DNA of 64,000 bases from a virus, in the IMG/VR virus record IMGVR_UViG_3300025574_000001, positions 7,328 through 71,327 of that record; one strand, given 5' to 3'. Within the stretch, counting starts at the first letter, position 1; each line of letters opens with the position of its first letter. The position numbers and the translations under genes are program-made. Shown here in pieces: positions 1-64,000 of the stretch. The notes beneath the pieces were generated by a model, which was not told the origin of the DNA, did no database searches, and saw only the letters and a list, made by a program, of their open reading frames with translations.

Positions 1-1
1 A

Positions 2-184
2 AAGAAACTAGGTGCTGCGAAATTTTGGACTCAGATTGCCGCGCTTAATGGTAACATCCGTGATCCTAAGTCAATCAAGGTGGGTCAAGTATTACGCTTA
101 CCTAAAGATGCTACTGTTAAGAAAGATCTTAATGAAGTTCTTATTCATGGTCCTGTTGGTGGACCTATCCCGGGATTGTTCTAA
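2..184 (+). CDS. LysM-domain tail/baseplate protein (5' truncated)
   Basis: Frame 2 reads KKLGAAKFWTQIAALNGNIRDPKSIKVGQVLRLP, a LysM pattern. Its stop overlaps the next ATG (TAATG). Confidence 0.75.
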   Translation, partial: KKLGAAKFWTQIAALNGNIRDPKSIKVGQVLRLPKDATVKKDLNEVLIHGPVGGPIPGLF

Positions 185-1683
185 TGTCACTTATTACCGC
201 ACCACCATCGATTCTTGGAAGTACAGTCCCACATCCTGGACTTGCACCTACATCCATTAACACATTATTGGTCAATGGGTCTGATGGATGGAAGACGAAT
301 ATCGCGGACGCGGCAACTGGCATCTCCATTGCATTTAATATCGATGGCACACCCAACGTCATCGTGCAGACAGAAGATCCACAACGATTTTTACTTCGTT
401 CAAAAATGGGTATCGTTCGTTCGTACCTTATGATTGATGGCGTCACGTTCGTGATGGCTGAGATCGACAAGGCAGGTCCACAGATCACATTGACGTTTGA
501 ACACGCGGTATGTTCGAAGTTGAAGGATCGCACAGACACGTTGTCGGTGCGTGCGAATACTATGTCACGAACTTCATTCGTCGCAAAACTTGTAGCGATG
601 GAGGGATGGATTCAGTTATTAATGCCGGGCGGTCCTGAACTTCAAAACTCAATTGCACAACTCTCTACAGGTAACGTCGATTCATCCACGGGTGGCGCAC
701 TCCCACTCCCATACAGCACTACCTTTCAACAAAAAGAAACGTTCTGGGATTCGACTGGCACCGTCCTTTCAACAATCGGGTGGCGTAGATTTCCTCGAGG
801 TGCAAACCAACTTATTGTCGCATCCGACCAGTGGCTCTATAATCAGACACCCATTGCAACGATTGATGAAGACACACCCGGCGTCGATAGCATTGATTTC
901 AACTATGACATACGCAAACCACTGGGTCAAGTGACAGTGACGTGTCGTGCGTCGGCATGGGCGTTCCCGGTGGGTTCCGTCATTGCGTTCTCTGCCAAGA
1001 TGGGAATCATTGGCATACAGTCAAGTGTGCAACCACGACAAACAATCGGTGGACAGTTACCGGCTATCCCGGGTCATTGGCTTGTCACAAACATTGCACG
1101 AACATTAACATCTGCATCTTGCACCATCACACTTGATAATCCACTCTTAACACTGACTGAACCACAGACACAACCGCCGACTAGTCCTGTGAATGAAGTG
1201 ATTGCCGGACTTAGTCCTAGCACTGTTGCAGAACTCTCACTTCCTAATGGCGCACAGACAGGTAAGGGTGCAACACAAAAGATTACGCAGTTCGTTAAGT
1301 TTGCTGAATCAAAAGTTGGTGGTCCATACGTGTGGGGCGGTTCAGGGCCGAAGGGTTATGATTGCAGTGGTCTTGTGCAAGGTGCTGCGGCAACTATTGG
1401 TGTAAGTCTTGAACACAACTCAGTCGCAATCTATAATCAGTGTATGGCGGCAAAAACGACATGCACGACGGAGACGGCAATGAAAACATACGGCGCACTC
1501 CTCTTCATTCAACCCGGGACGAATGGTGAACCATCAGCATCCGCGGGTGGTGGACACATTGCGATTTCATTGGGTAACGGTTCGACAGTTGAGGCCACAG
1601 GAATTGCGGAAGGCATCTGCTACAACACACACATCACTGGTGAATTCAATCAAGGCGCACTACTGCCGGGAATCGCGTACTGA
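184..1683 (+). CDS. Baseplate hub-like protein with C-terminal NlpC/P60 peptidoglycan hydrolase
   Basis: C-terminus has PYVWGG..GYDCSGLV (catalytic Cys) and GHIAISLG (His). It lies between the LysM and gp25 genes. Confidence 0.8.
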   Translation: MSLITAPPSILGSTVPHPGLAPTSINTLLVNGSDGWKTNIADAATGISIAFNIDGTPNVIVQTEDPQRFLLRSKMGIVRSYLMIDGVTFVMAEIDKAGPQITLTFEHAVCSKLKDRTDTLSVRANTMSRTSFVAKLVAMEGWIQLLMPGGPELQNSIAQLSTGNVDSSTGGALPLPYSTTFQQKETFWDSTGTVLSTIGWRRFPRGANQLIVASDQWLYNQTPIATIDEDTPGVDSIDFNYDIRKPLGQVTVTCRASAWAFPVGSVIAFSAKMGIIGIQSSVQPRQTIGGQLPAIPGHWLVTNIARTLTSASCTITLDNPLLTLTEPQTQPPTSPVNEVIAGLSPSTVAELSLPNGAQTGKGATQKITQFVKFAESKVGGPYVWGGSGPKGYDCSGLVQGAAATIGVSLEHNSVAIYNQCMAAKTTCTTETAMKTYGALLFIQPGTNGEPSASAGGGHIAISLGNGSTVEATGIAEGICYNTHITGEFNQGALLPGIAY

Positions 1684-2042
1684 TGAAACCACATGAATCC
1701 GCTACCCTTGGACACGTACTGTTCGGGACACGAGCGACAGAAGATGATGAACACATTGGCGCTCGATTTGAAGAGTGCGCATTTCATCACATCGATGTTG
1801 ATGGAATCTACTTCACACGGCCGATGTATGACAACAAGAAGACAGTCTATGGACCTGCACCATACACGTGGCCGATTGTTGATGTGACAGGTGCAACGGC
1901 AGTGAGTACTTTCGGAACGCACACGCACGTGATACCTATTCCAACACCAGCACCAACAACAGGTGATCGTCTTTTGGTCGCGTGGGTGACAACAATCGTA
2001 GGTGGGTTCCGTCCCTGGGTGATAGGTTGGTCAACATCATGA
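1683..2042 (+). CDS. Putative baseplate/spike protein
   Basis: 119 aa ORF coupled by overlaps between the hub and the gp25-like gene. Assigned by position only. Confidence 0.5.
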   Translation: MKPHESATLGHVLFGTRATEDDEHIGARFEECAFHHIDVDGIYFTRPMYDNKKTVYGPAPYTWPIVDVTGATAVSTFGTHTHVIPIPTPAPTTGDRLLVAWVTTIVGGFRPWVIGWSTS

Positions 2043-2359
2043 CAGTTATGGTTCCTCACTTCACATTTCCGTTCGCGGTTGATGGTGCATCGTTTGGTGT
2101 TCGTGAACAAGATTCAACTGGAGAGATTCAGGATTGTGTTGAGGTCTTGTTACTTACACCAATAGATTCGCGTATGGTGTTGCCCGATTACGGGACACCT
2201 GAACTTCTCTTTTCAGAACTACCCGCAAACATTCCGGCCATTCTTGCGAATTGCAACAAGTGGGAACCTCGTGCCGGGTTGACACTTACTGAAACACTTA
2301 ACGCGATTGACGAAAAAATTGTGAGCGTGCAAGTGCAGATAATCGGAGGCACATCATGA
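2039..2359 (+). CDS. Baseplate wedge protein, gp25/GPW-like
   Basis: PHFTFPF...EIQDCVEVLLLTPIDSRMVLPDYG...KWEPRA pattern. ATGA overlap, directly before baseplate J. Confidence 0.8.
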   Translation: MTVMVPHFTFPFAVDGASFGVREQDSTGEIQDCVEVLLLTPIDSRMVLPDYGTPELLFSELPANIPAILANCNKWEPRAGLTLTETLNAIDEKIVSVQVQIIGGTS

Positions 2360-3705: not shown

Positions 3706-3723
3706 TGAAACAGGAGATCGAAC

Positions 3724-5703: not shown

Positions 5704-5706
5704 TGA

Positions 5707-6432: not shown

Positions 6433-6435
6433 GAC

Positions 6436-10044: not shown

Positions 10045-10500
10045 ATGCTTTTAAAAAAACGACTACATCAAGACGCTGACAAACTTCTTATTGGACCAAA
10101 GAGAACATTTCAGCGCATCATCGTTCATTCACTTATTGATTTGGAATACATTACATCATTAACTTGTGCATGGGAGTCGTGTGTACTCCCGGGTGTTCCG
10201 CTAGCAGCAAGTGGAAGAACACTAGATGGTTTTACAATTGATCATATCATCGCAATAAATGATGGTGGCACTGACCGACCAGAAAACATACAACTTCTAC
10301 ATCACACTTGCAATATGCGCAAAGGTGCAATCTTCACTGAAGAACGTCGAGCAAAGATTGCAGAGAAGACAAAACTTAGATGGAATGACCCGGCATATAG
10401 AAATGCAATGGCCACTCGAACACGATCACAAGAAGAACATGAACATCGAGTTGCAGGAGCACAACGCGGTGATGATCATTGGAAAAGAAGGAGTGCCTAA
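10045..10500 (+). CDS. HNH endonuclease with NUMOD3-like tail
   Basis: TIDHIIAINDGGTDRPENIQLLHHTCN, followed by EERRAKIAE. Confidence 0.85.
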   Translation: MLLKKRLHQDADKLLIGPKRTFQRIIVHSLIDLEYITSLTCAWESCVLPGVPLAASGRTLDGFTIDHIIAINDGGTDRPENIQLLHHTCNMRKGAIFTEERRAKIAEKTKLRWNDPAYRNAMATRTRSQEEHEHRVAGAQRGDDHWKRRSA

Positions 10501-11021
10501 TGTTGGTGATCTTAGAAGGGCCGGATGGGGCCGGGAAAACTACTCTCGCACAAAAGATTGCGTTCAGTGTTCACGGTGTCACTGACATTCGGCATTGTAG
10601 TCAACTAAGACGTAACCCTATGGCTGAGTATGTCGAGGACTTACACATGTACGTTCCCGGCACCGGGATGAATATCGTTTACGACCGTCACTACTTAGGT
10701 GAACTTACCTATGGACCTTTGTACCGTGGCATATCACAAGTCAGCCCAAGTATTAAGACAGCGATTGAGTACCGATTAAACAAACTTGGTGCGCTTCTTG
10801 TTCATGTGACACACGATCTTCCAACGCTAATTGAACGATGTAAGGATAAGGGCGAAGATTTTTTGCAAGAAGGTGACATTTACTTTGTGCGTCAACAATT
10901 CATTGAAGAAGTTGCGGAGTCGGGAATTAGATTCAAGGCGGCTGTGACAGATGCAACAGGTCAAGACATCCTTGATATCATCTGGCTTGCACAAGAACTG
11001 GAAAAGAGAGTGAGTGAATGA
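10500..11021 (+). CDS. Thymidylate-kinase-like dNMP kinase
   Basis: ILEGPDGAGKTT P-loop and the YDRHYLGELTYGPLYR motif. Confidence 0.85.
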   Translation: MLVILEGPDGAGKTTLAQKIAFSVHGVTDIRHCSQLRRNPMAEYVEDLHMYVPGTGMNIVYDRHYLGELTYGPLYRGISQVSPSIKTAIEYRLNKLGALLVHVTHDLPTLIERCKDKGEDFLQEGDIYFVRQQFIEEVAESGIRFKAAVTDATGQDILDIIWLAQELEKRVSE

Positions 11022-11890
11022 TCGTAATCCCTAACATGCCTATTGGTTATCGCACAGTCATTGAACATGTCATTGCACGCGGGCGTCCTGTTAGTCCTCG
11101 AGGAATGCCAACGTTGGAAGTTCCTGATGTTGTTGTGCGTCTTGACAATCCGTTCTTTGCTCTTGCACTCGGTTCAACACGGAAGATCAATCTGGCGATT
11201 GCGGCAGCGGAGACTGTGCAACTTATCGGTGGGTTTCTTGACCCACAACTTTTGACCAGTGTCTCTAAGAACTTTGAACAGTTCATGGATGATGGCACCT
11301 TTCACGGTGGTTATGGCGAACGCATCGGAGATCAGATGTTGCGTGCCGCACAAAAGTTAGTGACGGATCACAGCACGCGACAAGCCGTGATTCAACTCTG
11401 GGACAAGGACAAGGATAATGAAAGCGGATATCACGATTATCCTTGCACTCTTTCACTCGTCTTTCAAGTTCGTGATGATAAGTTAGAACTTCATACCACG
11501 ATGCGTTCAAACGACGTGTGGCTTGGGTTTCCTTATGACGTGTTTCAATTCACCCAGTTGCAAATCACGATGGCACGTGTCTTGGGCTTTGGCATTGGTC
11601 CTTACTATCATCATGCTGTAAGTCTGCATCTCTATGATCGAAATCGTTTTGATGCGGAACACTTGCGCATGGTGCCAGTGACACTCATAGATAACCGTCC
11701 ACTGGGTTTCGGCAATGTACACACTGACCGAAGTATGAATATCTTTGGTGTATTACAAAGAGCCAAAGATATTGGGACAGGTAATAAAAGTGAGGTCACA
11801 AAGCGTTCACCATCAGAAGAGTGGTACGTGAAGCAGTTGGCACCACACGTTGCACCACACACAAAAGACAAAGGGACGAGAAACAAATGA
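11018..11890 (+). CDS. Thymidylate synthase-fold enzyme, probable dCMP hydroxymethylase/hydroxylase
   Basis: DYPC (Cys143) and MRSNDVWLGFPYD. Asp174 sits at the position of E. coli ThyA Asn177 and T4 gp42 Asp179. Confidence 0.8.
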   Translation: MIVIPNMPIGYRTVIEHVIARGRPVSPRGMPTLEVPDVVVRLDNPFFALALGSTRKINLAIAAAETVQLIGGFLDPQLLTSVSKNFEQFMDDGTFHGGYGERIGDQMLRAAQKLVTDHSTRQAVIQLWDKDKDNESGYHDYPCTLSLVFQVRDDKLELHTTMRSNDVWLGFPYDVFQFTQLQITMARVLGFGIGPYYHHAVSLHLYDRNRFDAEHLRMVPVTLIDNRPLGFGNVHTDRSMNIFGVLQRAKDIGTGNKSEVTKRSPSEEWYVKQLAPHVAPHTKDKGTRNK

Positions 11891-12378
11891 CGGCAATAGG
11901 ACGACGACAGAGTTGGGACAGGACGTGGATGGCCATGGCGTTTGTGATGGCACTTCGGTCAGATTGTACACGCTCACAAATAGGTGCAGTGATTGTGAAT
12001 GATAAGAATCGAATCATCGCCACCGGATATAACGGTCCACCCGCGGTAAGTCCTGTCGATTACACATGTCATCTCTCATGTCCCAGGGCGAATGGTGATG
12101 TAGGAGATCAGTACGGGTTCACTTGCATTAGCATTCATGCCGAGGCCAACGCGCTTCTCTTCTGTGATCGGTCAACGATTGAAGGTGGTTCACTCTATGT
12201 GAACGCTGTGCCGTGTCCCGACTGCGCGAAGTTGATTGCGAACAGCGGACTCACGCACGTGTACTTTGTCGATGATGGGAAACCAAATCGAATCCCACAC
12301 ACGGTTACAGAATACTTAGACCAACACGGTGTCCTAATGCTAGAGATGCAGATGCGTGATGAGTTTGCAGAACGTTAA
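11887..12378 (+). CDS. dCMP deaminase
   Basis: IIATGYNGPP, HAEANAL and PCPDCAK Zn-binding motifs. Confidence 0.92.
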   Translation: MTAIGRRQSWDRTWMAMAFVMALRSDCTRSQIGAVIVNDKNRIIATGYNGPPAVSPVDYTCHLSCPRANGDVGDQYGFTCISIHAEANALLFCDRSTIEGGSLYVNAVPCPDCAKLIANSGLTHVYFVDDGKPNRIPHTVTEYLDQHGVLMLEMQMRDEFAER

Positions 12379-14137
12379 ACTCCATTACATCGAGTCGTTG
12401 CGTGATGCTGATGAATTCATGTTATGGCTAGGTAATCAGCGTTCCGTTCTTGCAGTTGACACAGAGACGACAGGTCTCAAGCCGCACAGAGATCACGTGC
12501 GCCTTGTGCAATTTGGCGATCACGATGAAGGGTGGACGTTTCGCTGGGATCGATGGGGCGGTGTCGTTAAAGAAGTGTTTGATAGGTATGAAGGTGATTA
12601 CGTTTTTCACAACGGAAAATTCGACCTTGCGATGTTGAAGCAGTGGTGTGACGTTGTGATTCCTCCTTCACGTGTTCACGACACTGCAATCATGGCGCGA
12701 CTACTTGACCCATGTGGGTTACGTGGTCTTAAGCCGGTGGCCACGATGTTAGTCGATAGGAATGCGGGTGTTGGTCAAGCGATGTTGGATAAGGCGATGC
12801 ATGATGGTGGATGGGACTGGTCAACGATTCCGTATGACGTGCCAGCCTACACGATGTATGCCGCGATGGACTGTGTGCTGACTGTGCGTCTCTTTGAAAT
12901 TCTCTACCCACAGATCTTGACGACTTGTCCGGTGGCATATGATTTGGAACGTGAGTTCGCTTCTGTGGCGCAAAAGATCGAGGCTCGAGGATCACAGGTT
13001 GACGCGGATTACACTAAGCAAGCATTTGAAAGTCTCACCACGTATATGACGACTGCGGAACAGTGGTGTGTTGACAACTACAATGTGAAGCCAGGTTCTA
13101 ATCAAGCAGTGGTACAAGCGCTTATGAATGATGGTGTATCGTTCATCAAGACAACAAAGGCCGGTGCCGTGTCGCTTGATGCTGATGTGTTAGAAGGAAT
13201 TGATCATCCACTTGCAAAGACTGTCTTACAACGACGACAAACGCAAAAGGTAGCGAACACTTATCTCAAAAACTTTTTGGAAATGTCCGATGATCAATAC
13301 ATCATTCGCCCAGGGATGGATGCACAAGGAACTGTGACAGGTCGAATGAGTATGGAGTTGCTTCAAACACTCCCACGTCGCAATGAAGACAACCCGTTAG
13401 CGGACATCGTGCGCAACTGCATTGTGCCGCGTGAAGGTAACGTCTTGCTCTTCAGTGACTTTTCCCAGGTGGAAATGCGTATATTGGCTCACCTCACTGG
13501 TGATCCCGGATTAGCAGAAGCATTCACCCAAGATGATTTTTTTCTTAGTGTTACTCGGGAAATTTTCAATGACCAAACAATTACAAGAAAAGACCCGCGA
13601 CGACAGACCACTAAGAATGGGCTCTATGCGTGGGCGTATGGTGCGGGTGCCGATAAGTTCGCGATGACTGCGGGTATTCCAAGAGAAGAAGGCGCTGTGT
13701 TCTTCAACACAATCAAGAATCGTTTCCCGATGATGGAAGGATTCAAGAAACAAGTCGAACGTGTAGCAACTGAACGCGCACAACTGGAAGGTCGACCGTA
13801 TGTCCTGTCGCCTTTCACACGTCAGCCCTACTATCCGCAACGTGAGGATAAGATTTACGCTTTGGTCAACTACTTAATTCAAGGTAGTGCGGCATCGATC
13901 TTGAAGATGAAGGTTGTTGAACTTGACAACGCGGGTGTTGGCGATTACATCACACTCTTGATTCACGATGAAGTGATTGTGGATGCACCATTGAATATGA
14001 ATCGTGAAATCGCTGGCACGATGCAAGCGATAATGAACGATGATCACATATTGTCGGTTCCTCTTATAGCGGAACTTAGTGCGGGTTATCGGTGGGGTGA
14101 AAAGTTTGATTACCTGGGATCCTCGTTAGATGTCTAG
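12356..14137 (+). CDS. polA: DNA polymerase family A (3'-5' exonuclease plus polymerase)
   Basis: DTETTGL exonuclease motif; motif A DFSQVEMRILAH; motif B RQTTKNGLYAWAYG; motif C IHDE. Confidence 0.95.
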   Translation: MMSLQNVKLHYIESLRDADEFMLWLGNQRSVLAVDTETTGLKPHRDHVRLVQFGDHDEGWTFRWDRWGGVVKEVFDRYEGDYVFHNGKFDLAMLKQWCDVVIPPSRVHDTAIMARLLDPCGLRGLKPVATMLVDRNAGVGQAMLDKAMHDGGWDWSTIPYDVPAYTMYAAMDCVLTVRLFEILYPQILTTCPVAYDLEREFASVAQKIEARGSQVDADYTKQAFESLTTYMTTAEQWCVDNYNVKPGSNQAVVQALMNDGVSFIKTTKAGAVSLDADVLEGIDHPLAKTVLQRRQTQKVANTYLKNFLEMSDDQYIIRPGMDAQGTVTGRMSMELLQTLPRRNEDNPLADIVRNCIVPREGNVLLFSDFSQVEMRILAHLTGDPGLAEAFTQDDFFLSVTREIFNDQTITRKDPRRQTTKNGLYAWAYGAGADKFAMTAGIPREEGAVFFNTIKNRFPMMEGFKKQVERVATERAQLEGRPYVLSPFTRQPYYPQREDKIYALVNYLIQGSAASILKMKVVELDNAGVGDYITLLIHDEVIVDAPLNMNREIAGTMQAIMNDDHILSVPLIAELSAGYRWGEKFDYLGSSLDV

Positions 14138-14489
14138 CGCACTGCACATACGATTGTTCTTTGCCCATAATGGTCTTGGACCATACGCTTGTTTCTTTTG
14201 TGGTGATGATGTCACACTAGAGAAAGTAACAATTCATCATAAGAATCACAATCATGATGACAACCGAAAATCAAACTTGAAAGCATCACACTCCGGTTGT
14301 CATAGTCGACATCATGCCACCGGGCGTGTTAAATCAGATGAAGAATGCGCAAAGATTTCAATAGCGCGTAAGGGTATGTTTGAACGTGGTGAACTTGTAT
14401 CACCAACAAAAGGTGTAGGTCACACACCCGAAACTCGCGCAAAGATGAGTGCATCAATGATGGGAAACTTGAATGGAAAACGAAGGTGA
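14130..14489 (+). CDS. HNH endonuclease with NUMOD3
   Basis: GPYACFFC...IHHKNHNHDDNRKSNL..SHSGCHSRHH and HTPETRAKMS. Confidence 0.85.
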   Translation: MSSALHIRLFFAHNGLGPYACFFCGDDVTLEKVTIHHKNHNHDDNRKSNLKASHSGCHSRHHATGRVKSDEECAKISIARKGMFERGELVSPTKGVGHTPETRAKMSASMMGNLNGKRR

Positions 14490-19832: not shown

Positions 19833-21146
19833 ATGACGATGGGTAAGAGAATCGGATACGCGAAGTTAGGGCGTTCAATGCCACTTGTTGCTAGTGAAGG
19901 CGACTTCAGTGATGATGAACCTGCACGTGTGTTACGTGATCTTGCCCATCGTCACCCGGAGGATGAATTCGTTATTCTTGGATTCAATTCATGTGATGAC
20001 AATGCAACAGCACGTATGCCCGACAACGTTGTGAACCCGTGGCATGATGGGTGGCGTGATTCATTGAAAGAATTAAGAACGGGTTGGAAGGCGCCACTAG
20101 GACCAGAGAATCAGATGAAGATACAAGATTGGGGTGACGCAAACATTCTCCCATGGTTTCGTTCGTGTGATGCTGTGATCATCTGGCTTGGACAACATGG
20201 GAACACGAATAGTTTTATCCCGCCAGCAAATGGGTTGTGGTCTGATGGTGCAGTTAAACTTCACGACGAATACCTTTCGTATGGAAGTTACTGTGTACGT
20301 GGTGTGAATGCATTTCGTCAAGCCGACCCACTCACACGTGAAGAAATTTATCTAGTCGCTGACGGACGTAATCATTTGAAAGCACGTGACACAAAGTGGC
20401 CACTTAAGCATCCGATTCAGGGACAATACATTTGGTCACGTAAGACGAAGTTTGAACGTTATGGCGATACACGATCACCCGAAGAGTGTGGGTTCCCAGA
20501 AGCAGAGTGGGACAACGATCACATATGGATGGCCGATGTGAAGTATGAATACACACGTCTTGAAATCTCAGGCATCCTTCCCTGGGAAGTTGACATTCGT
20601 TACTCTGAGGAATTTGATTCACGACGTCACTTTGGTCTTTTCATCAATGAGGCAAGAGCGTATGTTGGCGTGTCACGTCTTAAGGCGATGCAAGAGTACG
20701 TGTTACAACTAAACCCGGTGTTCATTCATGGAAAATGGGGTAAGGAATCATTAGCCGTTCTTGGCTTTGATATTCAGCAAGCGCCCGCAACGATTTACTA
20801 TGACATCTTACGTTCTGTGAAGTGTACGTTCTCAACACCTTCATCAGGTACGGGTTGGGCAACGACGAAACCGTGGCAAGGTTTCGGTTGCGGGACCGTG
20901 ACGTTCTTTCATCCGAAATACGACACACAAGACAACATCCTTGGTGATGCACCCAAGGAACTTCGCGATTGGCTTCGTGTCACATCACCTGAACAATTGA
21001 AAAAGCGCGTGGAACATCTTGACACTCACTATGACGATTGGCTTTGGATTATCCGCGAACAGAAAAAGCATTATGATACGGCAGTTGCAGAGATGAGACA
21101 CATCAAAAAAATTGAGGAGAGAATATATGGTAATGACAATGGATGA
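19833..21146 (+). CDS. T4 beta-glucosyltransferase-like DNA glycosyltransferase (GT-B)
   Basis: Motifs collinear with T4 BGT as recalled: YLVADGR vs YLFTDIR (catalytic Asp100), TTKPWQ..YDTQ vs TLRVWE..FDTK, and VTSPEQLKKRVEHL vs VNNRAELIDRVNEL. Confidence 0.75.
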   Translation: MTMGKRIGYAKLGRSMPLVASEGDFSDDEPARVLRDLAHRHPEDEFVILGFNSCDDNATARMPDNVVNPWHDGWRDSLKELRTGWKAPLGPENQMKIQDWGDANILPWFRSCDAVIIWLGQHGNTNSFIPPANGLWSDGAVKLHDEYLSYGSYCVRGVNAFRQADPLTREEIYLVADGRNHLKARDTKWPLKHPIQGQYIWSRKTKFERYGDTRSPEECGFPEAEWDNDHIWMADVKYEYTRLEISGILPWEVDIRYSEEFDSRRHFGLFINEARAYVGVSRLKAMQEYVLQLNPVFIHGKWGKESLAVLGFDIQQAPATIYYDILRSVKCTFSTPSSGTGWATTKPWQGFGCGTVTFFHPKYDTQDNILGDAPKELRDWLRVTSPEQLKKRVEHLDTHYDDWLWIIREQKKHYDTAVAEMRHIKKIEERIYGNDNG

Positions 21147-22218
21147 AACGACGACACACATCAAAGAACCACCGAAAAAATTGGACATAGCAATTGTGTC
21201 CACATCAATCAATGAAGCACCAGTGGCGTATGCGAAGTGGGCAAAGTTAGGACGCTTAATTATTGCGGGTGACAAGAACACACCACCTACACTTGAACAC
21301 TACATCAAATCCCTGGGTGAACAACACCAGTACATACCGCCGGCGCAACAAGATCGATGGGAATCGAGTGAAGTGATTGGGTGGCATAACATCCAACGTC
21401 GCAACATTGCAATCCTCGAGGCGATTAAGTCAGATGTTGATTACATCATCACAGTGGATGACGACAACATCCCACTTCAAAACATTGATCTTATACTCTC
21501 TGCATTTGAAAATTCTCACGCACTACACGTTAGTTCAGCACTAGGTTGGTACGACCCGTGTCGTGAACTTATCCCCGCTGTGTGGCATCGTGGATTCCCA
21601 TATTCTTTTCGCAATCAGCAAGGTAAGCAAGGAGTTGAGTCGCTTGAACGATATGACGTGATAAAAGTGCCAATAGGTGTTGTGGCGGCAACGTGGTTGG
21701 GTGAACCTGATGTTGGTGCAATTGACCGCATCACGAATCACGTACTTGTTCAAGGACATCACGCCACTCTGTTAGACCCGGGTGTTGTGCTACAACCAGG
21801 AACGTGGTGTCCGTTCAATTCGCAAGCAACAGCGTGGCGTGCAGAGTACGCTTCACTGATGATGTGCTGGCCTGGTGTTGGTCGATTCGATGACATCTTC
21901 GCAAGTTTTGCAGCGCGTCGAGTGTTGGATGAATTGGGTGTTGGTGTGAAGTATGTGCAACCACTTGTGCGTCAAGATCGCAATGAACACGATTCATTCG
22001 TTGACCTTGAGAATGAAATGTTTGGCTACAAACATCAAGATGAGTTGTGCGAACTTCTTCGTGCAGTTGACTTACGTGGTATAGATGACGTGCAAGATAT
22101 GCAACATCACGTCTATGATGCTCTTAGTGGCGCTAGATTTTTACCACATAGAACTATTGAATCATTTGAGTGTTGGATGAACGACGTTAAGACAGCGGAA
22201 AAGGAGCGTGCAGTATGA
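21127..22218 (+). CDS. GT75/RGP (UDP-arabinopyranose mutase)- or STELLO-like protein
   Basis: IITVDDDN, HRGFPYSFR, WLGEPDVGA, GTWCPFNSQ and GRFDDIFA match RGP IYTIDDDC, VRGYPFSLR, WLNIPDYDA and GRYDDMWA. Confidence 0.75.
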   Translation: MVMTMDETTTHIKEPPKKLDIAIVSTSINEAPVAYAKWAKLGRLIIAGDKNTPPTLEHYIKSLGEQHQYIPPAQQDRWESSEVIGWHNIQRRNIAILEAIKSDVDYIITVDDDNIPLQNIDLILSAFENSHALHVSSALGWYDPCRELIPAVWHRGFPYSFRNQQGKQGVESLERYDVIKVPIGVVAATWLGEPDVGAIDRITNHVLVQGHHATLLDPGVVLQPGTWCPFNSQATAWRAEYASLMMCWPGVGRFDDIFASFAARRVLDELGVGVKYVQPLVRQDRNEHDSFVDLENEMFGYKHQDELCELLRAVDLRGIDDVQDMQHHVYDALSGARFLPHRTIESFECWMNDVKTAEKERAV

Positions 22219-23183
22219 AGATAGCGGTTACGGGTGCAGGTGGATTCATTGGTGGTCACCTTGTCAATCAGTTGTTGAATGATGGACACCAAGTTTCGGC
22301 GTATGACATTAAGCCGTTAAGAGAATGGCAACAAGTTCGTGGCGATGCGCGTAATCATCCTCTTGTTGATGTTGGTATGAACAATGCTGATTTTGATTTT
22401 GAAGATATGGATGAAGTGTATCAACTTGCAGCCGACATGGGCGGGTTGGGATTCATTCAAAACAACAAAGCACGATGCATGCTATCGGTTCTTGCATCAA
22501 CGAACACATTGTTAAAAGCCAATGAAGCGGGTGTAGGTCGATTCTTTTACCCATCATCAGCGTGTGCGTACCCAGCGGGTGTGCAGACTGAAATTGATTC
22601 ACCGCCAATTAAAGAAAGCGACATATACCCGGCGATGCCAGAGGATGGGTACGGCTGGGAGAAGTTATTCAGTGAGCGAATGTGTAATCACTTCTATGAA
22701 GACTTCGGTCTTGAAACACGTGTGGCGCGATACCACAACACATACGGCCCATGGGGTGAATGGGAAGGTGGTCGTGACAAGGCTCCCGCGGCAATGTGTA
22801 GGAAAGTCGCAATCGCTAAGTTGTCAAAGAGTCATGAAGTTGAAGTATGGGGTGATGGAATGCAAACACGAACGTTCACATACATTGATGATTGTCTAAA
22901 AGGCACAGTGATGTTGACGCGAAGTGACGTGCATGAACCCGTGAACCTTGGTTCCGCGGAACTCATATCCATCAATGATCTGGCGAATCTCACTGCACTT
23001 ATTGCCGGCGTGAACATCCACATACGTCATATCCCCGGCGCGTTGGGCGTGCGAGGTCGATGCAGTGACAACACACTCATCAATAAGTTATTTGACTGGG
23101 AACCTAGCATTTCATTAAGTGAAGGAATGGAACGCACTTATGAATGGGTTTATAATCAGGTGAAGGCAAAATATTTCTCATGA
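22215..23183 (+). CDS. GDP-mannose 3,5-epimerase-like NAD-dependent epimerase
   Basis: VTGAGGFIG, QLAADMGGLGFI, SSACAYP, YGWEK and GGRDKAPAAMCRK, all GME-type motifs. Confidence 0.88.
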   Translation: MKIAVTGAGGFIGGHLVNQLLNDGHQVSAYDIKPLREWQQVRGDARNHPLVDVGMNNADFDFEDMDEVYQLAADMGGLGFIQNNKARCMLSVLASTNTLLKANEAGVGRFFYPSSACAYPAGVQTEIDSPPIKESDIYPAMPEDGYGWEKLFSERMCNHFYEDFGLETRVARYHNTYGPWGEWEGGRDKAPAAMCRKVAIAKLSKSHEVEVWGDGMQTRTFTYIDDCLKGTVMLTRSDVHEPVNLGSAELISINDLANLTALIAGVNIHIRHIPGALGVRGRCSDNTLINKLFDWEPSISLSEGMERTYEWVYNQVKAKYFS

Positions 23184-23548
23184 TAACTGGCAATTGTGTT
23201 AAGTGTGGCACATGGCGACAGTCACTTCATCGTGATCATATCATTGCAAAGTGCAATGGTGGAAGTGATGATCCCAGTAACATCCAGTTGTTGTGCGCGA
23301 ATTGTCATGAAGACAAAACACGTGAAGATTTAACAGGTCGAACAATAAGTGAAGAAACACGTGCCAAAATAAAAGGTCATCCTCATCGTGGTCCTAAACA
23401 TCATTCACCAGAAACACGTGCAAAAATAGGTGAAGCGCGAAAAGGACAAGTGTTCACGCCAGAGACACGGGCGAAGATGAGTACATCAGCAAAAGAATCA
23501 TCTAAACGCGGATGGGAAACACGACGAAGAAATGAGAGAAAAACATGA
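23180..23548 (+). CDS. HNH endonuclease with NUMOD3 repeats
   Basis: CVKC...HRDHIIAKCNGGSDDPSNIQLLCANCH, plus ETRAKI/ETRAKM repeats. Confidence 0.88.
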   Translation: MITGNCVKCGTWRQSLHRDHIIAKCNGGSDDPSNIQLLCANCHEDKTREDLTGRTISEETRAKIKGHPHRGPKHHSPETRAKIGEARKGQVFTPETRAKMSTSAKESSKRGWETRRRNERKT

Positions 23549-24021
23549 CATTCACACCACCCGAATCAGATGACTACACATTCAGTGAGTGGCTTGACTC
23601 CACAACTGAATTGCAAGTGGGCGCATACGGAATCAACCCGGGGAAATTGCAGGGTGAAGCGTTGAAAGGATGGTGTGCAATCAACGTTCTTGCAGCCACT
23701 GATGAACTTCACGAATTCTTACAGGAAGTGCCGTGGAAGCCGTGGGCATCAGGTATGCAAATCAATCGTGATGCAGCCATCAGTGAAATCGTTGACACCA
23801 TGCACTTCATCTCAAACTTGTTGGCGACATTCGACGTCACAGGTGAAGAACTTACACGTGTGTATAAGGCAAAGCAAATTCGCAACGCACAACGTCAAGC
23901 CGAAGGCTACACGGGATTGGACAAGTGTTCAGGTTGTCACCGCGACAAACAAGAAGTCGGCGGATGCATACATGAACAAGGTCCAATGACGTGCAATGGT
24001 TGTGGGACGGTGTGGCTGTGA
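23545..24021 (+). CDS. Dimeric dUTPase/dCTPase (T4 gp56-like, MazG superfamily)
   Basis: DELHEFLQEVPWKPW...EIVDTMHF...YKAKQIRNAQRQAEGY. Confidence 0.85.
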   Translation: MTFTPPESDDYTFSEWLDSTTELQVGAYGINPGKLQGEALKGWCAINVLAATDELHEFLQEVPWKPWASGMQINRDAAISEIVDTMHFISNLLATFDVTGEELTRVYKAKQIRNAQRQAEGYTGLDKCSGCHRDKQEVGGCIHEQGPMTCNGCGTVWL

Positions 24022-24398
24022 GTACGCGAACACATCAAAAAGTTTTTCTAACAAATAATGGTGATGGGCCGTGGCCTTGTCACTTTTGCAAAGAACTTGT
24101 GTATGGACCTATTCCAAATGGAAAAACAAAATATGTTGCTATTGTTCATCACATTGATGAAGATCGTTCTAACAATGACAAATTGAATCTTGTAGTGGCT
24201 CATCACAGTTGCCATTCTTCATATCACGCAACTCATCCACCAAATGATGTTACACAAAGTGACCAAGCCAAACGAGGTTGGAAGACACGAAAACTTCAAG
24301 GAAATAATCTTGCTAATGCATACTGCACAACACGTGGTATGAAACGCAGCAACGCAACAAGTAAGGGTTGGATAACGCGAAAGAGGAATGCATTATGA
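24018..24398 (+). CDS. HNH endonuclease
   Basis: GPWPCHFC...VHHIDEDRSNNDKLNL..AHHSCHSSYH. GTG start overlaps the upstream stop. Confidence 0.8.
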   Translation: MSTRTHQKVFLTNNGDGPWPCHFCKELVYGPIPNGKTKYVAIVHHIDEDRSNNDKLNLVVAHHSCHSSYHATHPPNDVTQSDQAKRGWKTRKLQGNNLANAYCTTRGMKRSNATSKGWITRKRNAL

Positions 24399-25609
24399 CA
24401 AAGTCAACTCACACAGCCATTGATGTACAAGGTTTCGCTGGCGGGTTCACACTGGGAATGGTGCAGGCAGGTTTCACACTTGTTTCAAAATGCGAAATGA
24501 AGGGTGCATTCGGTGCAGCCAACTGTGAAGCGAATCGTCATCTTCTTGGCAACAAGTGGGATCTTCAAGTTGGGCCACAGGAGAGTTGGGAAAACCGAGG
24601 TGCTGAAGTTCAGTTTGGCAATCCTCCGTGTAGTGCGTTCAGTCCTCTTAGCGCGAAATCGTTTCGTGGTATGAACAGTCCTATCGCCCACTGTATGTGG
24701 GCAGAAAGTCAGTACGCCGCACGTGCAATGCCATATGTGATGATCTTTGAGTCTGTGCAACAGGCTTACAATCAAGGTCTCCCGATGATGCGCGATATTC
24801 GCACGTGGCTTGAACACGAATCAAAAACGAAGTGGGAACTGTATCACGTCCTTCATAACAATGCCGGCCTAGGTGGTGCGTCAATTCGTAAGCGATATTT
24901 CTATGTGGTGTCGCGTATCCCATTTGGTGTTGATGAACCACACATCACACGTGTGCCAGTTCTTAAGGATGTGTTAGGTGATCTAATGGGACTGGGTCAG
25001 ACGTGGGAAGCCCAAGCCTATCGACGTCAACCATCGTGGTGGGCAAAGCCAATGCGTTCAAAGTTGAATGTTGTGGATGGTCACATCGGTCGCAACAACG
25101 CAGTGGATGTGTTGCGTGTATTGCAACTTCTTGACGCTGTGCCGTGGGGTGAAGGTGAAGTTGTTGGGCAAGTCGCGAAAAGGTACTATGAACAGTACGG
25201 CGAACTTCCTGATCTCTGGACCAACACGCAGAAGTGGGTGGACAAGGATTGGCAGATGGGATTTCACCAACCCATCAAAATGAAATGGGACAAGATGGCG
25301 CGAGTGATCACAGGCGCAGTGTTGCATAAGAACATTCACCCACGGGAGAATCGGTTTCTTACACATCGCGAGGCTGCACGAATTCAAGGGTTTCCTGATG
25401 ACTGGAACATTCGCCCGTTGCGTGGCGTGAGTGGATTAAGCGCAACGTGGGGCAAGGGTATCCCAGTGCAAGCGGGCAAGTGGATTGGAACAGCGATTAA
25501 GAATGCACTTGACGACAACCCGCAGGAATATCAAGGTGAATTGATTGGAGAGAGGGAACACGTCATCGACTGGACTAACACATATCGAAAATTCACGACT
25601 GAACGGTAG
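24395..25609 (+). CDS. C5-cytosine methyltransferase-fold protein (divergent)
   Basis: GNPPCSAFS (motif IV), FESV (VI), SIRKR (VIII) and REAARIQGFPD (IX). Motif I DVQGFAGG and motif X WGKGIP are non-canonical. Confidence 0.8.
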   Translation: MTKSTHTAIDVQGFAGGFTLGMVQAGFTLVSKCEMKGAFGAANCEANRHLLGNKWDLQVGPQESWENRGAEVQFGNPPCSAFSPLSAKSFRGMNSPIAHCMWAESQYAARAMPYVMIFESVQQAYNQGLPMMRDIRTWLEHESKTKWELYHVLHNNAGLGGASIRKRYFYVVSRIPFGVDEPHITRVPVLKDVLGDLMGLGQTWEAQAYRRQPSWWAKPMRSKLNVVDGHIGRNNAVDVLRVLQLLDAVPWGEGEVVGQVAKRYYEQYGELPDLWTNTQKWVDKDWQMGFHQPIKMKWDKMARVITGAVLHKNIHPRENRFLTHREAARIQGFPDDWNIRPLRGVSGLSATWGKGIPVQAGKWIGTAIKNALDDNPQEYQGELIGEREHVIDWTNTYRKFTTER

Positions 25610-31909: not shown

Positions 31910-32184
31910 CTAAGTCCATCTCTCTCCCTCTTCATTAGTTCGATGCAGCCCGCGTACCCAGCGATGTCAATGAGTGAATCACGTTGACCGCCACCATTGT
32001 TGTACCGGGCAATCTTCACACCAATCATACACAGTGCAACTTGTTCAGGTGTGACGTCGACACCAAGGATAGGACTCCACAATCCCGCAATAGTTGTGAA
32101 TGATTGTAGTGGTGTGCCATAGTCTTGTTGACGTTCGCCATTGATGATTTCATCGGCTTCACGTAATACTGACTTTTCACTCAT
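31906..32184 (-). CDS. DUF6378-like protein
   Basis: LREADEIINGERQQDYGTP..SFTTIAGLWS...VALCMIGVKIAR...DSLIDIAGYA. Confidence 0.8.
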   Translation of the reverse strand: MSEKSVLREADEIINGERQQDYGTPLQSFTTIAGLWSPILGVDVTPEQVALCMIGVKIARYNNGGGQRDSLIDIAGYAGCIELMKRERDGLS

Positions 32185-33005
32185 GGGCGTTCCTTGTCAT
32201 GGCGTAGTTGGTGCCACCCGGTGAAGTTGGCGTGGTTGTGATGCTCATATGAATTGTTGTAATCACAAGCGAATGCCTGGTGCTCAAGTGGTGATGCGTG
32301 CATCGGGTTTGCGTTTGTGAGTTGCTCATAAAGGCGCGCATCAGCATCAAAGTCTTTAACGTCACCGGCGTGTAGTGATGACACACGCGCACAACGCGCC
32401 ACACTCATGATTTGGCATTCGCCCAGTGAACGGGTGCGTGATTCTTCTTCAGTGACATAAGGCAAATGCCAGTACCGAAGTTGCGGCGTGCTCTCATCCA
32501 TTGCTTGCTTCATCAGCACCGCCGCTGCACGAATCTCTGGTTGTGCCATTGGTGAACAACGCAAGCCAAAGAAGTTATCCCATTCAGTCGATGTGACCAC
32601 AATGGTGTGCCACATGAATGGTTCAAGATAGCGGTTAAGAACTGATTTGTGAAGACGGTGTTCAGGATCAGGATGACGGTTGAGATAGATGATAATTGAA
32701 TCAGTCGTATCCACAAGAATGTCACGAATAAGATCCTGTGCGTCACTCAAGTCTTGACCTTCCAGTTCACTGCCACCTTGCATACCCTTTTGTTCGCGTG
32801 GATGTGAGATAGGTAGTGCGGGTGATTCATCGATTCTGTCCAGTTGCTTTTGAATCGGAATGGCGCGTGAGGACGCAGAGTTCCTGGAGAAAACACGGTG
32901 CGTGTTGAATTCAGCCAACACGAATCGGTGAAGTGTCACTTCCATCGTTGTGATTCGTGCACCCGTGTAGATTGAATCTTCAATGATCTTGGCTTCTGTG
33001 TTCAT
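32181..33005 (-). CDS. thyX: FAD-dependent thymidylate synthase (ThyX-like)
   Basis: AEFNTHRVFSRNSASSRAIP (ThyX motif variant), RYLEPFMW, SVARCARVS and HASPLEH. Confidence 0.85.
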   Translation of the reverse strand: MNTEAKIIEDSIYTGARITTMEVTLHRFVLAEFNTHRVFSRNSASSRAIPIQKQLDRIDESPALPISHPREQKGMQGGSELEGQDLSDAQDLIRDILVDTTDSIIIYLNRHPDPEHRLHKSVLNRYLEPFMWHTIVVTSTEWDNFFGLRCSPMAQPEIRAAAVLMKQAMDESTPQLRYWHLPYVTEEESRTRSLGECQIMSVARCARVSSLHAGDVKDFDADARLYEQLTNANPMHASPLEHQAFACDYNNSYEHHNHANFTGWHQLRHDKERP

Positions 33006-33481
33006 GGCAGTACCACGTGTTCGCACTTATCACAACAACCGTCCTCACCCAGTCGTCTTTGTTCCATACACAAGTCAAGGATCGTATGACACGCGACACA
33101 TGAACTTGTTCGATTCTCTTCCACAACACGCGCTTCATATTCCTTCCACGCAATCACAGCCGCTTTGAACAACACATTCGTTTCAAAGAGGTTGCCAATG
33201 TCGGCACCTTCGAGATGTGTGAACACTTCAACCATGTGTTTGATTTGTTGCGCCTGCACGTCAGGGCGTGTGTATTCACTGAAGACCTTTAACGCATCAA
33301 TGAACACACTGTCAATCTGTTCTTGCAAGGCAAGAGTGGCGTGTGTTTGTGCCATGATGCTAAGTGCTACTGCATCCCAGTGATTATCTTCATCACGTGA
33401 AAAAACCAAATCATCCGCAGTTCTCAATAATCGTGCTGCTTCATGCACGTGAATCGCTACTGCATCTATTTCGTCACTCAT
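33002..33481 (-). CDS. Hypothetical protein
   Basis: 159 aa, coupled ORF, with C-terminal CxxC...CCDKC. Confidence 0.55.
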   Translation of the reverse strand: MSDEIDAVAIHVHEAARLLRTADDLVFSRDEDNHWDAVALSIMAQTHATLALQEQIDSVFIDALKVFSEYTRPDVQAQQIKHMVEVFTHLEGADIGNLFETNVLFKAAVIAWKEYEARVVEENRTSSCVACHTILDLCMEQRRLGEDGCCDKCEHVVLP

Positions 33482-50862: not shown

Positions 50863-50868
50863 GGAGAT

Positions 50869-56979: not shown

Positions 56980-56988
56980 TCTAAAACC

Positions 56989-57549
56989 ATGAACGCGCCA
57001 ACAATCTTCCAGGAACAAGCGCACTATCGCAAGATCTTCGTCAAGCACAACGGCGATGGTCCCTGGGCATGTTTCTTCTGTGGTGATGAAGTATCGCGTG
57101 TGGAGAAGGATACACGCTTCCGTCTCGCGATTCATCATAAGAATCACAACCATGATGATGATCGAAAATTGAATTTAAAGCCAGCGCATAATTCATGTCA
57201 TTCACGGCATCATTCAATTGGACGTAAACATACACCTGAGACTCGTGCAAAACAACGTGCGGCAAGTATGGGGAATCAGCATGGTCTTAATCCTTCTGAT
57301 GAGACACGTGAAAAACTTCGTGTAGCATCGACTGGCAGACTTGGTCCTAATAGAGGAAAAATTCCATGGAACAAAGGCGCGGTCACACCCGATGAAGTAC
57401 GTGCAAAGATAAGTGAAGCACATAAAGGAAAAATCCTGTCACCGGAGACGCGTGCAAAAATAAGTAAAATTCACAGAGGAAAACCTAAGTCACCAGAGAC
57501 ACGGGCACGTATGAGTGATGCGGCAAAACGACGGAAGGTATCGCTATGA
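56989..57549 (+). CDS. HNH endonuclease with NUMOD3 repeats
   Basis: GPWACFFC...IHHKNHNHDDDRKLNL..AHNSCHSRHH, plus four ETR(A/E)K-type repeats. Confidence 0.88.
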   Translation: MNAPTIFQEQAHYRKIFVKHNGDGPWACFFCGDEVSRVEKDTRFRLAIHHKNHNHDDDRKLNLKPAHNSCHSRHHSIGRKHTPETRAKQRAASMGNQHGLNPSDETREKLRVASTGRLGPNRGKIPWNKGAVTPDEVRAKISEAHKGKILSPETRAKISKIHRGKPKSPETRARMSDAAKRRKVSL

Positions 57550-60763: not shown

Positions 60764-60765
60764 TA

Positions 60766-61854: not shown

Positions 61855-62380
61855 CATCCGGGTAGTCGTAACGACGATGACATGATGTGCAGAGTTCTAA
61901 GTAATCATTTCGTCGCGATGTGTAATGACGACCATCTATCCAGATGAATTCAGTTCTCCCATGGATAAGCGCAAGTTCTTTGGCAGTACCACCGCAATGT
62001 TCACACACACCAATCCATCGTTCTTTCTTATGACGTCCGTGCCATGTGCCGTATGAAAGTACATGATCATATCGACACTTGAGAGAACAGAAGTTCATCT
62101 TAAACGATTCTGATTTTGCACACGTGAAATTTTTCTTACATCGAGGACATGTCTTTGTCACACGTCGTCCTATTGTTCGATTGCCAACCTTCTTATGAAA
62201 TTCTGAACTGGAATGCCAGCACAGCAATGAACAGTATTGATTCTTTGCAGGACTCTTACATGTCTTACACTTATTTCTTTTAACTGGTCCACCGCGTCGT
62301 TTTGCCCAACGGTTTATTGCTGCACATGACTTACATCGTGGTCCTCGCACAATTTGTTTTTGACAATCAAGACATTGCAT
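61805..62380 (-). CDS. HNH endonuclease with Zn-ribbon repeats (antisense insertion)
   Basis: CxxC repeats and YCS/FCS motifs; C-terminal CEHC...NDYLELCTSCHRRYD. Confidence 0.75.
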   Translation of the reverse strand: MQCLDCQKQIVRGPRCKSCAAINRWAKRRGGPVKRNKCKTCKSPAKNQYCSLLCWHSSSEFHKKVGNRTIGRRVTKTCPRCKKNFTCAKSESFKMNFCSLKCRYDHVLSYGTWHGRHKKERWIGVCEHCGGTAKELALIHGRTEFIWIDGRHYTSRRNDYLELCTSCHRRYDYPDVKRKNQMNQPQRKPSR

Positions 62381-62433
62381 AACAATTATTTTAGCGTATT
62401 ACTTGACGTGTGTTACTACTTTCTGATGTGATG

Positions 62434-62446
62434 ACCCGCTATAGTT
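62434..62446 (+). promoter_or_regulatory. Promoter-like motif ACCCGCTATAGTT
   Basis: Identical 13-mer to the leftward motif at 36004-35992. Upstream of an AAGGAGG RBS. Confidence 0.55.
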
Positions 62447-62476
62447 CAACTCGATTCCCTACAAGGAGGAAGTGTA

Positions 62477-62854
62477 ATGACTTATCCTGTGATTCCGTCG
62501 GATACTCCGAGTTCATACATCAACCCGGACCCGACACCAACCATTGAAGAATTCAATGGCACACTGGTCGCCAACACTGTTGACGTGCTTACATTTACGT
62601 TGAATCACGTTGGCGTAAAGATCACGAACATCAGTGGTGCAGCCGTCATCAACTATACGGTGGATGGTAGCACACCTGCCGCTGGGACGTCGCCGGAGTT
62701 GGCTGCTATCGCTGGTGCGTCGGTCATCGTGTCGTTCGATAGTGAAGACCTCCCAGTTGTGAAGTTACTTTCAACCGGCGTACCCACCATCGCGGTGCAG
62801 GGTCTTGATGAACTTGAACTCTTGCAGGACGACCAGACTGTGCGTGACGCTTAG
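62477..62854 (+). CDS. Hypothetical beta-rich protein
   Basis: GVKITNISGAAVINYTVDGSTP. Strong RBS. Confidence 0.6.
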   Translation: MTYPVIPSDTPSSYINPDPTPTIEEFNGTLVANTVDVLTFTLNHVGVKITNISGAAVINYTVDGSTPAAGTSPELAAIAGASVIVSFDSEDLPVVKLLSTGVPTIAVQGLDELELLQDDQTVRDA

Positions 62855-62857
62855 CAC

Positions 62858-63217
62858 ATGTCTAACTGGGTGTCGCTTGATGCGATGGCAGAGAATGAAG
62901 CAAAACGTAATCCTCCCTACTTTGGTAGTGAGGTCAACAATCCTGACTGGACATATGAAGACCCAGCGGTAACAGTTACTCCAGGAGCACCTTCACCTGG
63001 TGAACTTTGGTTGCTTGCTGACTACGATCCTTTGTTCTACGTTGGCCTTATGGCGAAATACGGATACACGAACAATGCGTGGAAGGCAATTCAGAACGCG
63101 CCTCCTCCAATCAAACCTTACATCCCACCGCGACCTGTACCCGCATACATCAGTGGATTAGATGGAACTGGTGCTGGAGACTTCGATGGGTTGACTGCAC
63201 CGGAGTTCACCTCATGA
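62858..63217 (+). CDS. Hypothetical protein
   Basis: 119 aa Pro-rich ORF. Confidence 0.55.
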   Translation: MSNWVSLDAMAENEAKRNPPYFGSEVNNPDWTYEDPAVTVTPGAPSPGELWLLADYDPLFYVGLMAKYGYTNNAWKAIQNAPPPIKPYIPPRPVPAYISGLDGTGAGDFDGLTAPEFTS

Positions 63218-63243
63218 AACACAATGTAGTATCGTGTACATAC

Positions 63244-64000
63244 ATGAAGGTCATTGGGCAACCTACATTGGTGCGCGCATCGCTGTTAGCGCCTGAAGCA
63301 CCTGCACCTTTACTTGCTGAACAACCTGCTCTTGTCACTCTTCCCAACGTTGAACTTCTTGAGGTTGGCGAAGACTGGGCGTGTTCAACTGGTGTGTTCA
63401 CGTGGACGCTTGAAGATCTTCAATCGGCCATCGCTTCGCAAGATGACCCATTCGTTCGTACACCCATTGTAAAACTTGGACACACTGACCCAAGGTTTGA
63501 TGGGCAGCCCGCGTTGGCTTCAGTTGAGAATTTACACCTTTCTCCAAATGGTCAGACTCTCATTGGTGATTTGGTCGGTCTTCCACTTTGGCTTGCACAG
63601 TGTATGGCGTCTTCATATCCACGACGTTCAGTGGAAGGTTACTTTGCATATGGAACACGTGCAGGTAAAGAGTGGCCATTTGTTCTTACTGGACTTGCTC
63701 TCTTGGGTGAAGCATACCCTGCCATCGATAGTCTTGAGGACGTGAAGGCATTGTTCAGTGGTACACCGCCTATCCTCATTCCTCTTGAAGAGAACCCATT
63801 GATGTTGGCAGGAAACCCCTCTGGGCCAGTGGTCGCTGTGCCACTTCGTGACAGGGACTTGTATGTCAATGCGACTGCACCTAGGATCGTGCAGGCCGAT
63901 GTTTCAGTTGATGACATTAGGACTGCCTTTTACGACGGTCCCGCTGCATCGCCAGATATGTTCTGGTGGTGGATACGTGAGATTCGTATTGACCCCGCTG
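63244..64000 (+). CDS. Mu-like prohead protease (3' truncated)
   Basis: Open to the window end: VKLGHTDPRFDGQPAL...GDLVGLPLW...YPRRSVEG...VLTGLALLG...PAI. Not in the ORF track. Confidence 0.8.
   Translation, partial: MKVIGQPTLVRASLLAPEAPAPLLAEQPALVTLPNVELLEVGEDWACSTGVFTWTLEDLQSAIASQDDPFVRTPIVKLGHTDPRFDGQPALASVENLHLSPNGQTLIGDLVGLPLWLAQCMASSYPRRSVEGYFAYGTRAGKEWPFVLTGLALLGEAYPAIDSLEDVKALFSGTPPILIPLEENPLMLAGNPSGPVVAVPLRDRDLYVNATAPRIVQADVSVDDIRTAFYDGPAASPDMFWWWIREIRIDPA

Follow-up and report, generated by a model that had tools for sequence, protein, structure and literature searches.

The DNA studied here is a stretch of 64,000 bases (hereafter the window, meaning that whole stretch at its full length), which corresponds to bases 7328-71327 of the IMG/VR viral genome IMGVR_UViG_3300025574_000001, a record of 75,028 bp with direct terminal repeats and a completeness rated at 100%. 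The genome is that of a tailed double-stranded DNA (dsDNA) phage with no sign of lysogeny, which belongs to a clade of soil phages, and the tetranucleotide AGCT is missing from it altogether. We conclude that AGCT is kept out by continuing purifying selection, the likeliest agent of which is a host endonuclease specific to AGCT (AluI-type, type IIP) and not blocked by cytosine modification; to this reading we assign a probability of about 0.55.

An earlier note on the window had reported, from reading by eye, that AGCT was missing, and the exact search bears this out. The tetramer occurs 0 times in the window, against a mean of 135 (standard deviation 11.5) in dinucleotide-preserving shuffles, and 0 times in the whole 75,028-bp genome, where 292 copies are expected from base composition, 97 from a maximal-order Markov model and 161 +/- 10 (minimum 130 of 300 shuffles) from synonymous-codon shuffles that kept every protein and the codon usage of each gene. 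The Poisson probability of zero copies lies between approximately 1e-42 and 1e-70, and every other tetramer occurs at least once in the genome. The trinucleotide AGC was found 571 times in the window, being followed by A in 231 cases, by G in 222, by C in 118 and by T in none. The 4.3 kb of non-coding DNA also contain no AGCT, with 6.6-16 copies expected. Other palindromes that the note had listed as present are there in numbers, namely GATC (217 copies in the window), TCGA (221), GGCC (104), CCGG (158), CTAG (59) and GTAC (186). Partial depletion was seen across the genome for CATG (observed/expected ratio, O/E, 0.54) and GATC (O/E 0.61).

The absence of AGCT is a property of a lineage. Eight metagenomic contigs with PolA or portal identity of at least 62% to this genome, 115 kb in total, hold 2 copies of AGCT where about 190 are expected, and a ninth contig of 3.7 kb (L021) has none, so that the nine relatives together have 2 copies in 119 kb. 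These two are located on one contig, at L008:237 (AAGCTT, in a LysM-protein gene) and L008:11329 (AAGCTG, in Pol A), and in both the word is preceded by A. The contigs stem from separate assemblies (JGI, ENA, Logan and IMG/VR). Since ten contigs from these sources agree, we rejected an artefact of the library or the assembly. Relatives at or below 59% identity show normal or raised AGCT: 70 sister and outgroup loci (663 kb) contain 2,701 copies, or 4.05 per kb, and not one of the 70 is free of the word. The closest deposited phages are actinobacteriophages at 35-40% identity, namely Micrococcus phage Kurnik, Gordonia phages GMA2 and GodonK, and Actinomycetia phage DSL-LC01, and deposited relatives with an orthologue of the methyltransferase (MTase) gene described below have AGCT at O/E 0.90-1.35. 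In a maximum-likelihood tree of PolA, the AGCT-free genomes formed one clade with 100/100 support, and their nearest sisters are normal. The AGCT ban is thereby shown to have arisen once, on the stem branch of a clade of phages from soil and rhizosphere; one of the sister records is labelled as soil metagenome. G+C content also fell on this branch: it is 59-64% in the sister lineages and 46-55% in the AGCT-free clade, a drop that suggests a host shift or an altered mutational bias.

Two subclades can be distinguished within the AGCT-free clade. Subclade A consists of this genome, the contigs L005-L009 and the contig of P0002 (138 kb), and subclade B of three independent partial contigs, L010, L011/L016 and L012 (52.5 kb). 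At four-fold degenerate sites, this genome differs from other members of subclade A at 49-55% of positions (Jukes-Cantor distance 0.8-1.0), and subclades A and B differ at 69-71%, which is saturated. As silent sites have turned over about once, neutral AGCT would have returned, which shows that the ban is actively maintained in every sampled member of the clade. The idea that the zero count in subclade A is an undecayed legacy was rejected, given approximately one substitution per silent site.

The manner in which the word was removed points to selection on the word itself. No protein sequence forces AGCT, and all three codon phases have been cleared through whichever synonymous route was available. 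Alanine is written GCT in none of 375 cases after an NNA codon, as compared with 15-21% after other codons, and GCG, GCC or GCA is used in its place, i.e. it is the T that has been changed. Pairs of Lys, Gln or Glu with Leu are spelled NAA-CTN 152 times, NAG-TTR 57 times and NAG-CTN never, in line with the earlier remark on the spellings GAACTT, AAGTTG and CAGTTA; likewise, serine in front of a T-initial codon is written AGC in none of 274 cases. Against synonymous shuffles, AACT is in excess by 50 (z 4.6) and AGTT is at -4, so that from the suggestion that both were abundant the AACT half held and the AGTT half did not. Of the outgroup AGCT sites, 29 lie where the residues are conserved, and at these the present genome has taken the synonymous steps that were available.

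The note had also raised the possibility of C-to-T decay at a methylated AGCT, perhaps tied to the phage MTase-fold gene; on this account the C5-cytosine MTase would methylate the word and deamination would remove it. The presence of AACT and AGTT as replacements in the Lys/Gln/Glu-Leu pairs would fit, but these are the sole synonymous single steps at such pairs, and the alanine sites were changed at the T or at the preceding A. The clearing of all phases by any synonymous route and the lack of a symmetric AGTT/AACT excess lead us to reject decay. Furthermore, subclade B is free of AGCT with no MTase gene in its sequenced regions, while outgroups that carry the MTase retain the word, and decay could not have brought ten independent genomes to exactly zero and kept them there. 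We regard this explanation as exceedingly improbable; the absence of AGCT is the outcome of selection on a DNA word through undirected, mostly synonymous substitution.

The MTase gene in question belongs to a set of genes that apparently modifies cytosine in the phage DNA. The genes of this set, together with ThyX, are as follows:

10479..11021, plus strand: P-loop dNMP-kinase-like gene (weak thymidylate-kinase P-loop match)
11018..11890, plus strand: ThyA-fold enzyme, putative dCMP 5-hydroxymethylase (Pfam Thymidylat_synt)
11821..12378, plus strand: dCMP deaminase (Pfam dCMP_cyt_deam_1, E 1.8e-20)
19833..21146, plus strand: 437-aa protein in the glycosyltransferase slot of the module (placed by synteny)
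21112..23183, plus strand: RGP-like and NAD-dependent epimerase genes, for sugar-nucleotide remodelling (Pfam RGP 9e-07, Epimerase 4.7e-33)
23545..24021, plus strand: MazG/dimeric-dUTPase-fold NTP pyrophosphohydrolase, candidate dCTPase (Pfam dUTPase_2 3.4e-10, PHROG dUTPase)
24368..25609, plus strand: C5-cytosine MTase-fold gene, the 24395 protein of the note, which had suggested a possible tie to the loss of AGCT (Pfam DNA_methylase 4.8e-17)
32181..33026, minus strand: ThyX (PHROG thymidylate synthase 1.7e-55, Pfam Thy1)

The closest solved structure to the ThyA-fold enzyme is that of the CMP 5-hydroxymethylase MilA (E 3e-16), and its catalytic Cys143 and Asp174, the latter at the position of ThyA Asn177, are invariant in nine relatives. 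Asn177 marks the dUMP-specific ThyA, and Asp at that position specifies cytosine. Since ThyX supplies dTMP, the ThyA-fold enzyme would be freed for another role; it is probably a dCMP 5-hydroxymethylase. It is not the cause of the AGCT ban, being present in sister lineages with normal AGCT and not found in AGCT-free subclade B. In 21 outgroup loci, the dNMP-kinase-like and ThyA-fold genes occur together. The 437-aa protein had no Pfam or PHROG match; its homologues (36-45% identity) are located beside MazG and MTase in 27 outgroup loci, and the syntenic genes of deposited phages are annotated as glycosyltransferase. The module is common to Kurnik, GMA2, GodonK and DSL-LC01, with the gene order of the window. 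In two of these phages, genes annotated as thymidylate synthase (Kurnik, L001:4656-5405; DSL-LC01, L003:6985-7845) have Asp at the ThyA Asn177 position, the same residue as in the T4 dCMP hydroxymethylase, and their products probably modify dCMP rather than synthesise dTMP.

The MTase-fold protein has its PPC, ExV, RxR and GxG catalytic motifs intact when aligned to M.HaeIII. Its gene is a conserved part (L001-L004, L014 and 26 metagenomic loci) of a module that apparently makes C5-substituted cytosine, and if the module had already substituted C5, that position would be occupied for an enzyme of the MTase fold. Orthologues at 44-54% identity are present in 26 metagenomic outgroup loci with normal AGCT and also in Kurnik, GMA2, GodonK and DSL-LC01, all normal for AGCT, and in most outgroup loci the ThyA-fold, deaminase, glycosyltransferase-slot, MazG and MTase genes occur together with normal AGCT. 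This shows that the ban is independent of both the MTase-fold gene and the cytosine-modification module, and the proposed tie between the loss of AGCT and this gene falls away.

The two subclades differ in the module. It is kept in subclade A, and neither the module nor the MTase gene was found in subclade B, where both slots (upstream of Pol A, and between SSB and prim-pol) were sequenced. With the module in the sister lineages and in subclade A, parsimony indicates that the ancestor that underwent the AGCT purge already carried it. In subclade B, CGATCG, CCGCGG, GCCGGC, CTCGAG, GGCGCC and GCGCGC are all at zero against 89 copies expected together, and GGATCC (0 observed against 10 expected), AGATCT (0 against 8.4), CGGCCG (0 against 6.9) and CCCGGG (1 against 10.8) are gone or nearly so; GAATTC, TGATCA, GACGTC, CGTACG and CTGCAG are retained. 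Enzymes of high-G+C actinomycetes recognise many of the erased words, a hint at the phylum of the hosts. Subclade A has 102 copies of the same six 6-mers against 122 expected, and yet almost no AGCT; the outgroups have them at expectation, and 37 outgroup loci, most of them with the module, avoid neither AGCT nor these six words. Such a contrast between the subclades is the pattern that would be expected if the module protects cytosine-containing sites. AGCT is the sole cytosine-containing word banned both with and without the module, and the earlier suggestion that this site is not fully shielded by modification finds support in the purging of AGCT from module-bearing subclade A and module-less subclade B alike.

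Subclade A has partial depletions that are not shared by subclade B, namely in CATG (O/E 0.56), GATC (0.69), GTGCAC (0.50), CTGCAG (0.50), CGCGCG (0.19) and CGTACG (0.31); CCCC/GGGG is also strongly depleted in subclade A (0.38). In DSL-LC01 (L003, OQ999401.1 78377-119558), TTAA and ATAT are both at zero against about 50 and about 46 expected. This phage avoids cytosine-free sites only, as would be expected for cytosine-modified DNA, and its ThyA-fold protein has the Asp.

These figures bear on a simpler account, that of plain avoidance of an AluI-type enzyme, in which subclade A modifies its cytosine only in part, only in some contexts or not at all, or the enzyme repertoires met by the two subclades have only the AGCT enzyme in common. 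The depletion of the cytosine-containing CATG, GATC, GTGCAC and CTGCAG in subclade A speaks for it, as does the fact that the modification is read from genes only. The 37 outgroup loci, which mostly carry the module and avoid neither AGCT nor the six 6-mers, speak against it, and so does DSL-LC01, with avoidance confined to cytosine-free words. This would be expected if the module protects cytosine-containing sites, and it agrees with what is reported for coliphages with 5-hydroxymethylcytosine (hmC). We consider plain avoidance unlikely.

The preferred reading, a host nuclease that reads AGCT despite modification, may be set out as follows. An AGCT endonuclease would be common in the soil hosts of the clade, which are probably actinobacterial. 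The module would follow the T4-like scheme of dCMP hydroxymethylase, kinase, dCTPase and glycosyltransferase, and would shield subclade A from ordinary restriction enzymes; the protection is suggested because subclade A tolerates at least ten 6-bp palindromes that were erased in the module-less subclade B. The AGCT nuclease of the hosts would tolerate C5-substituted cytosine and, not being blocked by the modification, would leave deletion of the site as the only escape. Three elements of this scheme are inferred: a host nuclease as the agent, actual modification of cytosine by the module, and protection, as opposed to different hosts, as the cause of the contrast between the subclades. Of the two kinds of nuclease that the earlier note had put forward, AluI-like or modification-dependent, selection by one that reads AGCT is thus retained as the best explanation, and a strictly modification-dependent one is unlikely because avoidance of AGCT is equally complete in the subclade with no modification genes.

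Both AluI and AluBI recognise AGCT, a palindrome of 4 bp. AluI differs from the proposed agent in being blocked by 5-methylcytosine, hmC and glucosyl-hmC, and it does not cut T4 DNA with hmC or glucosyl-hmC (PMC7653180 Table S1; PMC4471564), whereas AluBI reportedly cuts AGCT regardless of C5 methylation (PMC3912423) and so offers a precedent for the indifference to C5 methylation which the agent would need. Beyond AluBI, a search of the literature for isoschizomers of AluI and the organisms they come from yielded nothing of use.

Several points weigh against a host nuclease of this kind. The AGCT-specific host enzyme is a predicted one, and scans of genome contigs with baseplate-J and Sak4 alignments, intended to identify the host, were empty. 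Uniform zeros across many metagenomes would require almost all hosts to carry the enzyme. The hosts of subclades A and B may differ in their restriction repertoire, which would explain the 6-mer contrast with no protective modification, and the contigs of subclade B are partial, so that the module may lie relocated elsewhere; the modification as such, as said above, is deduced from gene content. That an AGCT enzyme would cut hmC or glycosyl-hmC DNA is an analogy with the tolerance of AluBI to C5 methylation. Finally, a nuclease of the phage clade itself may exist, as the comparison of A with B leaves out the early region of subclade B.

According to this last possibility, the ancestor of the clade gained a nuclease cutting AGCT, directed against the DNA of the host or of related co-infecting phages, and became immune through absence of the site. 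A ban that is absolute and uniform in all members, in any sample and with or without the module, is easier to understand if the agent travels with the phage, and the origin on one branch is in agreement with this. The genome also has several nuclease genes, including a PD-(D/E)XK gene, along with many unannotated early genes. The small endonuclease genes are:

10045-10500, 14130-14489, 23180-23548 and 23991-24398: three HNH and one NUMOD3-type genes, scattered in the replication and modification modules

Among the AGCT-free close relatives, the HNH and NUMOD3 genes are present in some and missing from others, as homing endonucleases would be, and the PD-(D/E)XK gene is also found in all outgroups, all of which counts against their being the agent. 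In the region that could be compared, the genes specific to A and B and absent from outgroups are tail proteins only, the early region of subclade B being left out, and no restriction-endonuclease family was detected in Pfam and PHROG searches of the proteins of the genome. The restriction enzymes borne by chloroviruses resemble such an arrangement, but immunity here would be due to absence of the site and not to methylation. In our judgement a nuclease of the clade's own is an improbable source of the ban.

Another possibility is a constraint unrelated to restriction, such as a toxin-type endoribonuclease specific to AGCU, or a process like that proposed for clade-A pandoraviruses. Since AGCT is a palindrome, each DNA copy would also be present in the transcript, and selection at the RNA and DNA levels is inseparable here. 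We know of no AGCU-specific RNase. Non-coding DNA is AGCT-free as well, though few copies were expected there, and the parallel loss of a dozen classic 6-bp palindromes from subclade B shows heavy type II restriction; both argue against such a constraint. In its favour, clade-A pandoraviruses lack AGCT entirely, and restriction-modification models were tested and rejected for them (Poirot, Jeudy, Abergel, Claverie 2019, bioRxiv 10.1101/712018). The phage clade resembles them in the word concerned, its total loss, the confinement to a single, sharply bounded clade, and the undirected replacements. In contrast to pandoraviruses, which are giant viruses of a eukaryote, it consists of bacterial viruses and has a sister subclade with classic multi-site avoidance, and this avoidance in subclade B makes a nuclease plausible here. 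On balance, we find a constraint outside restriction unlikely, and somewhat less probable than either of the two alternatives weighed above.

Among the genomes of prokaryotic viruses, about one in ten shows complete or near-complete elimination of sites (Rusinov et al. 2018, PMC6286503), and the present case is similar in that a short type II palindrome was fully eliminated from a dsDNA phage by synonymous changes. As in type II avoidance generally, the count is far below Markov and codon expectation, the word is an IIP-type palindrome for which an enzyme exists, and the removal is undirected and lineage-specific. Coliphages encoding a hydroxymethylase show almost no site avoidance (PMC6286503); here, unlike in those phages, a cytosine-containing site is at zero despite an apparent dCMP-hydroxymethylase/glycosyltransferase module. 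The halovirus HRTV-7, also a tailed prokaryotic virus of similar size, has zero AGCT as well, which its authors attributed to the target of a host restriction-modification system (PMC7230728), but it is archaeal, lacks CTAG and GATC too and is a single genome, whereas the ban described here is a clade-wide trait that arose on one branch. The putative module is comparable to the hmC/glucosyl-hmC system of T4 in its ThyA-fold enzyme with the cytosine-specifying Asp, dNMP-kinase-like protein, all-alpha NTP pyrophosphatase, dCMP deaminase, ThyX and glycosyltransferase slot; it differs in its sugar genes (RGP-like and epimerase), in the inclusion of a C5-MTase-fold gene and in being known, in this phage, from genes alone.

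Bare absence of AGCT would be ordinary, restriction-site avoidance being well known, and it is the comparison within the clade that adds value. What is unusual is a ban that arose on one branch and stands at zero across a diverged clade, alongside a module that seemingly relieves the avoidance of other sites. The sister subclades would display both the benefit of the module, in the tolerance of a dozen 6-bp restriction sites, and its limit, in AGCT. Tentatively, and with less than even confidence, we suggest that the AGCT pressure is blind to cytosine hypermodification, being exerted either by an AluBI-like enzyme of soil bacteria that cuts hmC or glycosyl-hmC DNA or by the clade's own nuclease with immunity through site absence, and in either case imposed on an ancestor that already bore the module. 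The observations point to a soil-bacterial, AGCT-reading nuclease unstopped by base modification, which, if true, would be a new move in the arms race of phage and host and a useful reagent for cutting modified DNA. The clade also offers a bacterial counterpart, easier to work with, to the AGCT ban of pandoraviruses, which still lacks an explanation.

As to the identity of the phage and its host, megablast of 20 kb of the genome against deposited phages gave no match, no tRNA genes were found in the genome, and the scans of genome contigs with baseplate-J and Sak4 alignments mentioned above had no matches either; the atlas neighbours of the endolysin were divided between Bacillota and Actinomycetota. 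The other genes recognised in this tailed phage are:

Structural and lysis genes: baseplate J, NlpC/P60 tail lysin, Mu-like portal, large terminase
Replication and recombination genes: Pol A, SNF2 helicase, PD-(D/E)XK nuclease, Sak4-like recombinase, prim-pol

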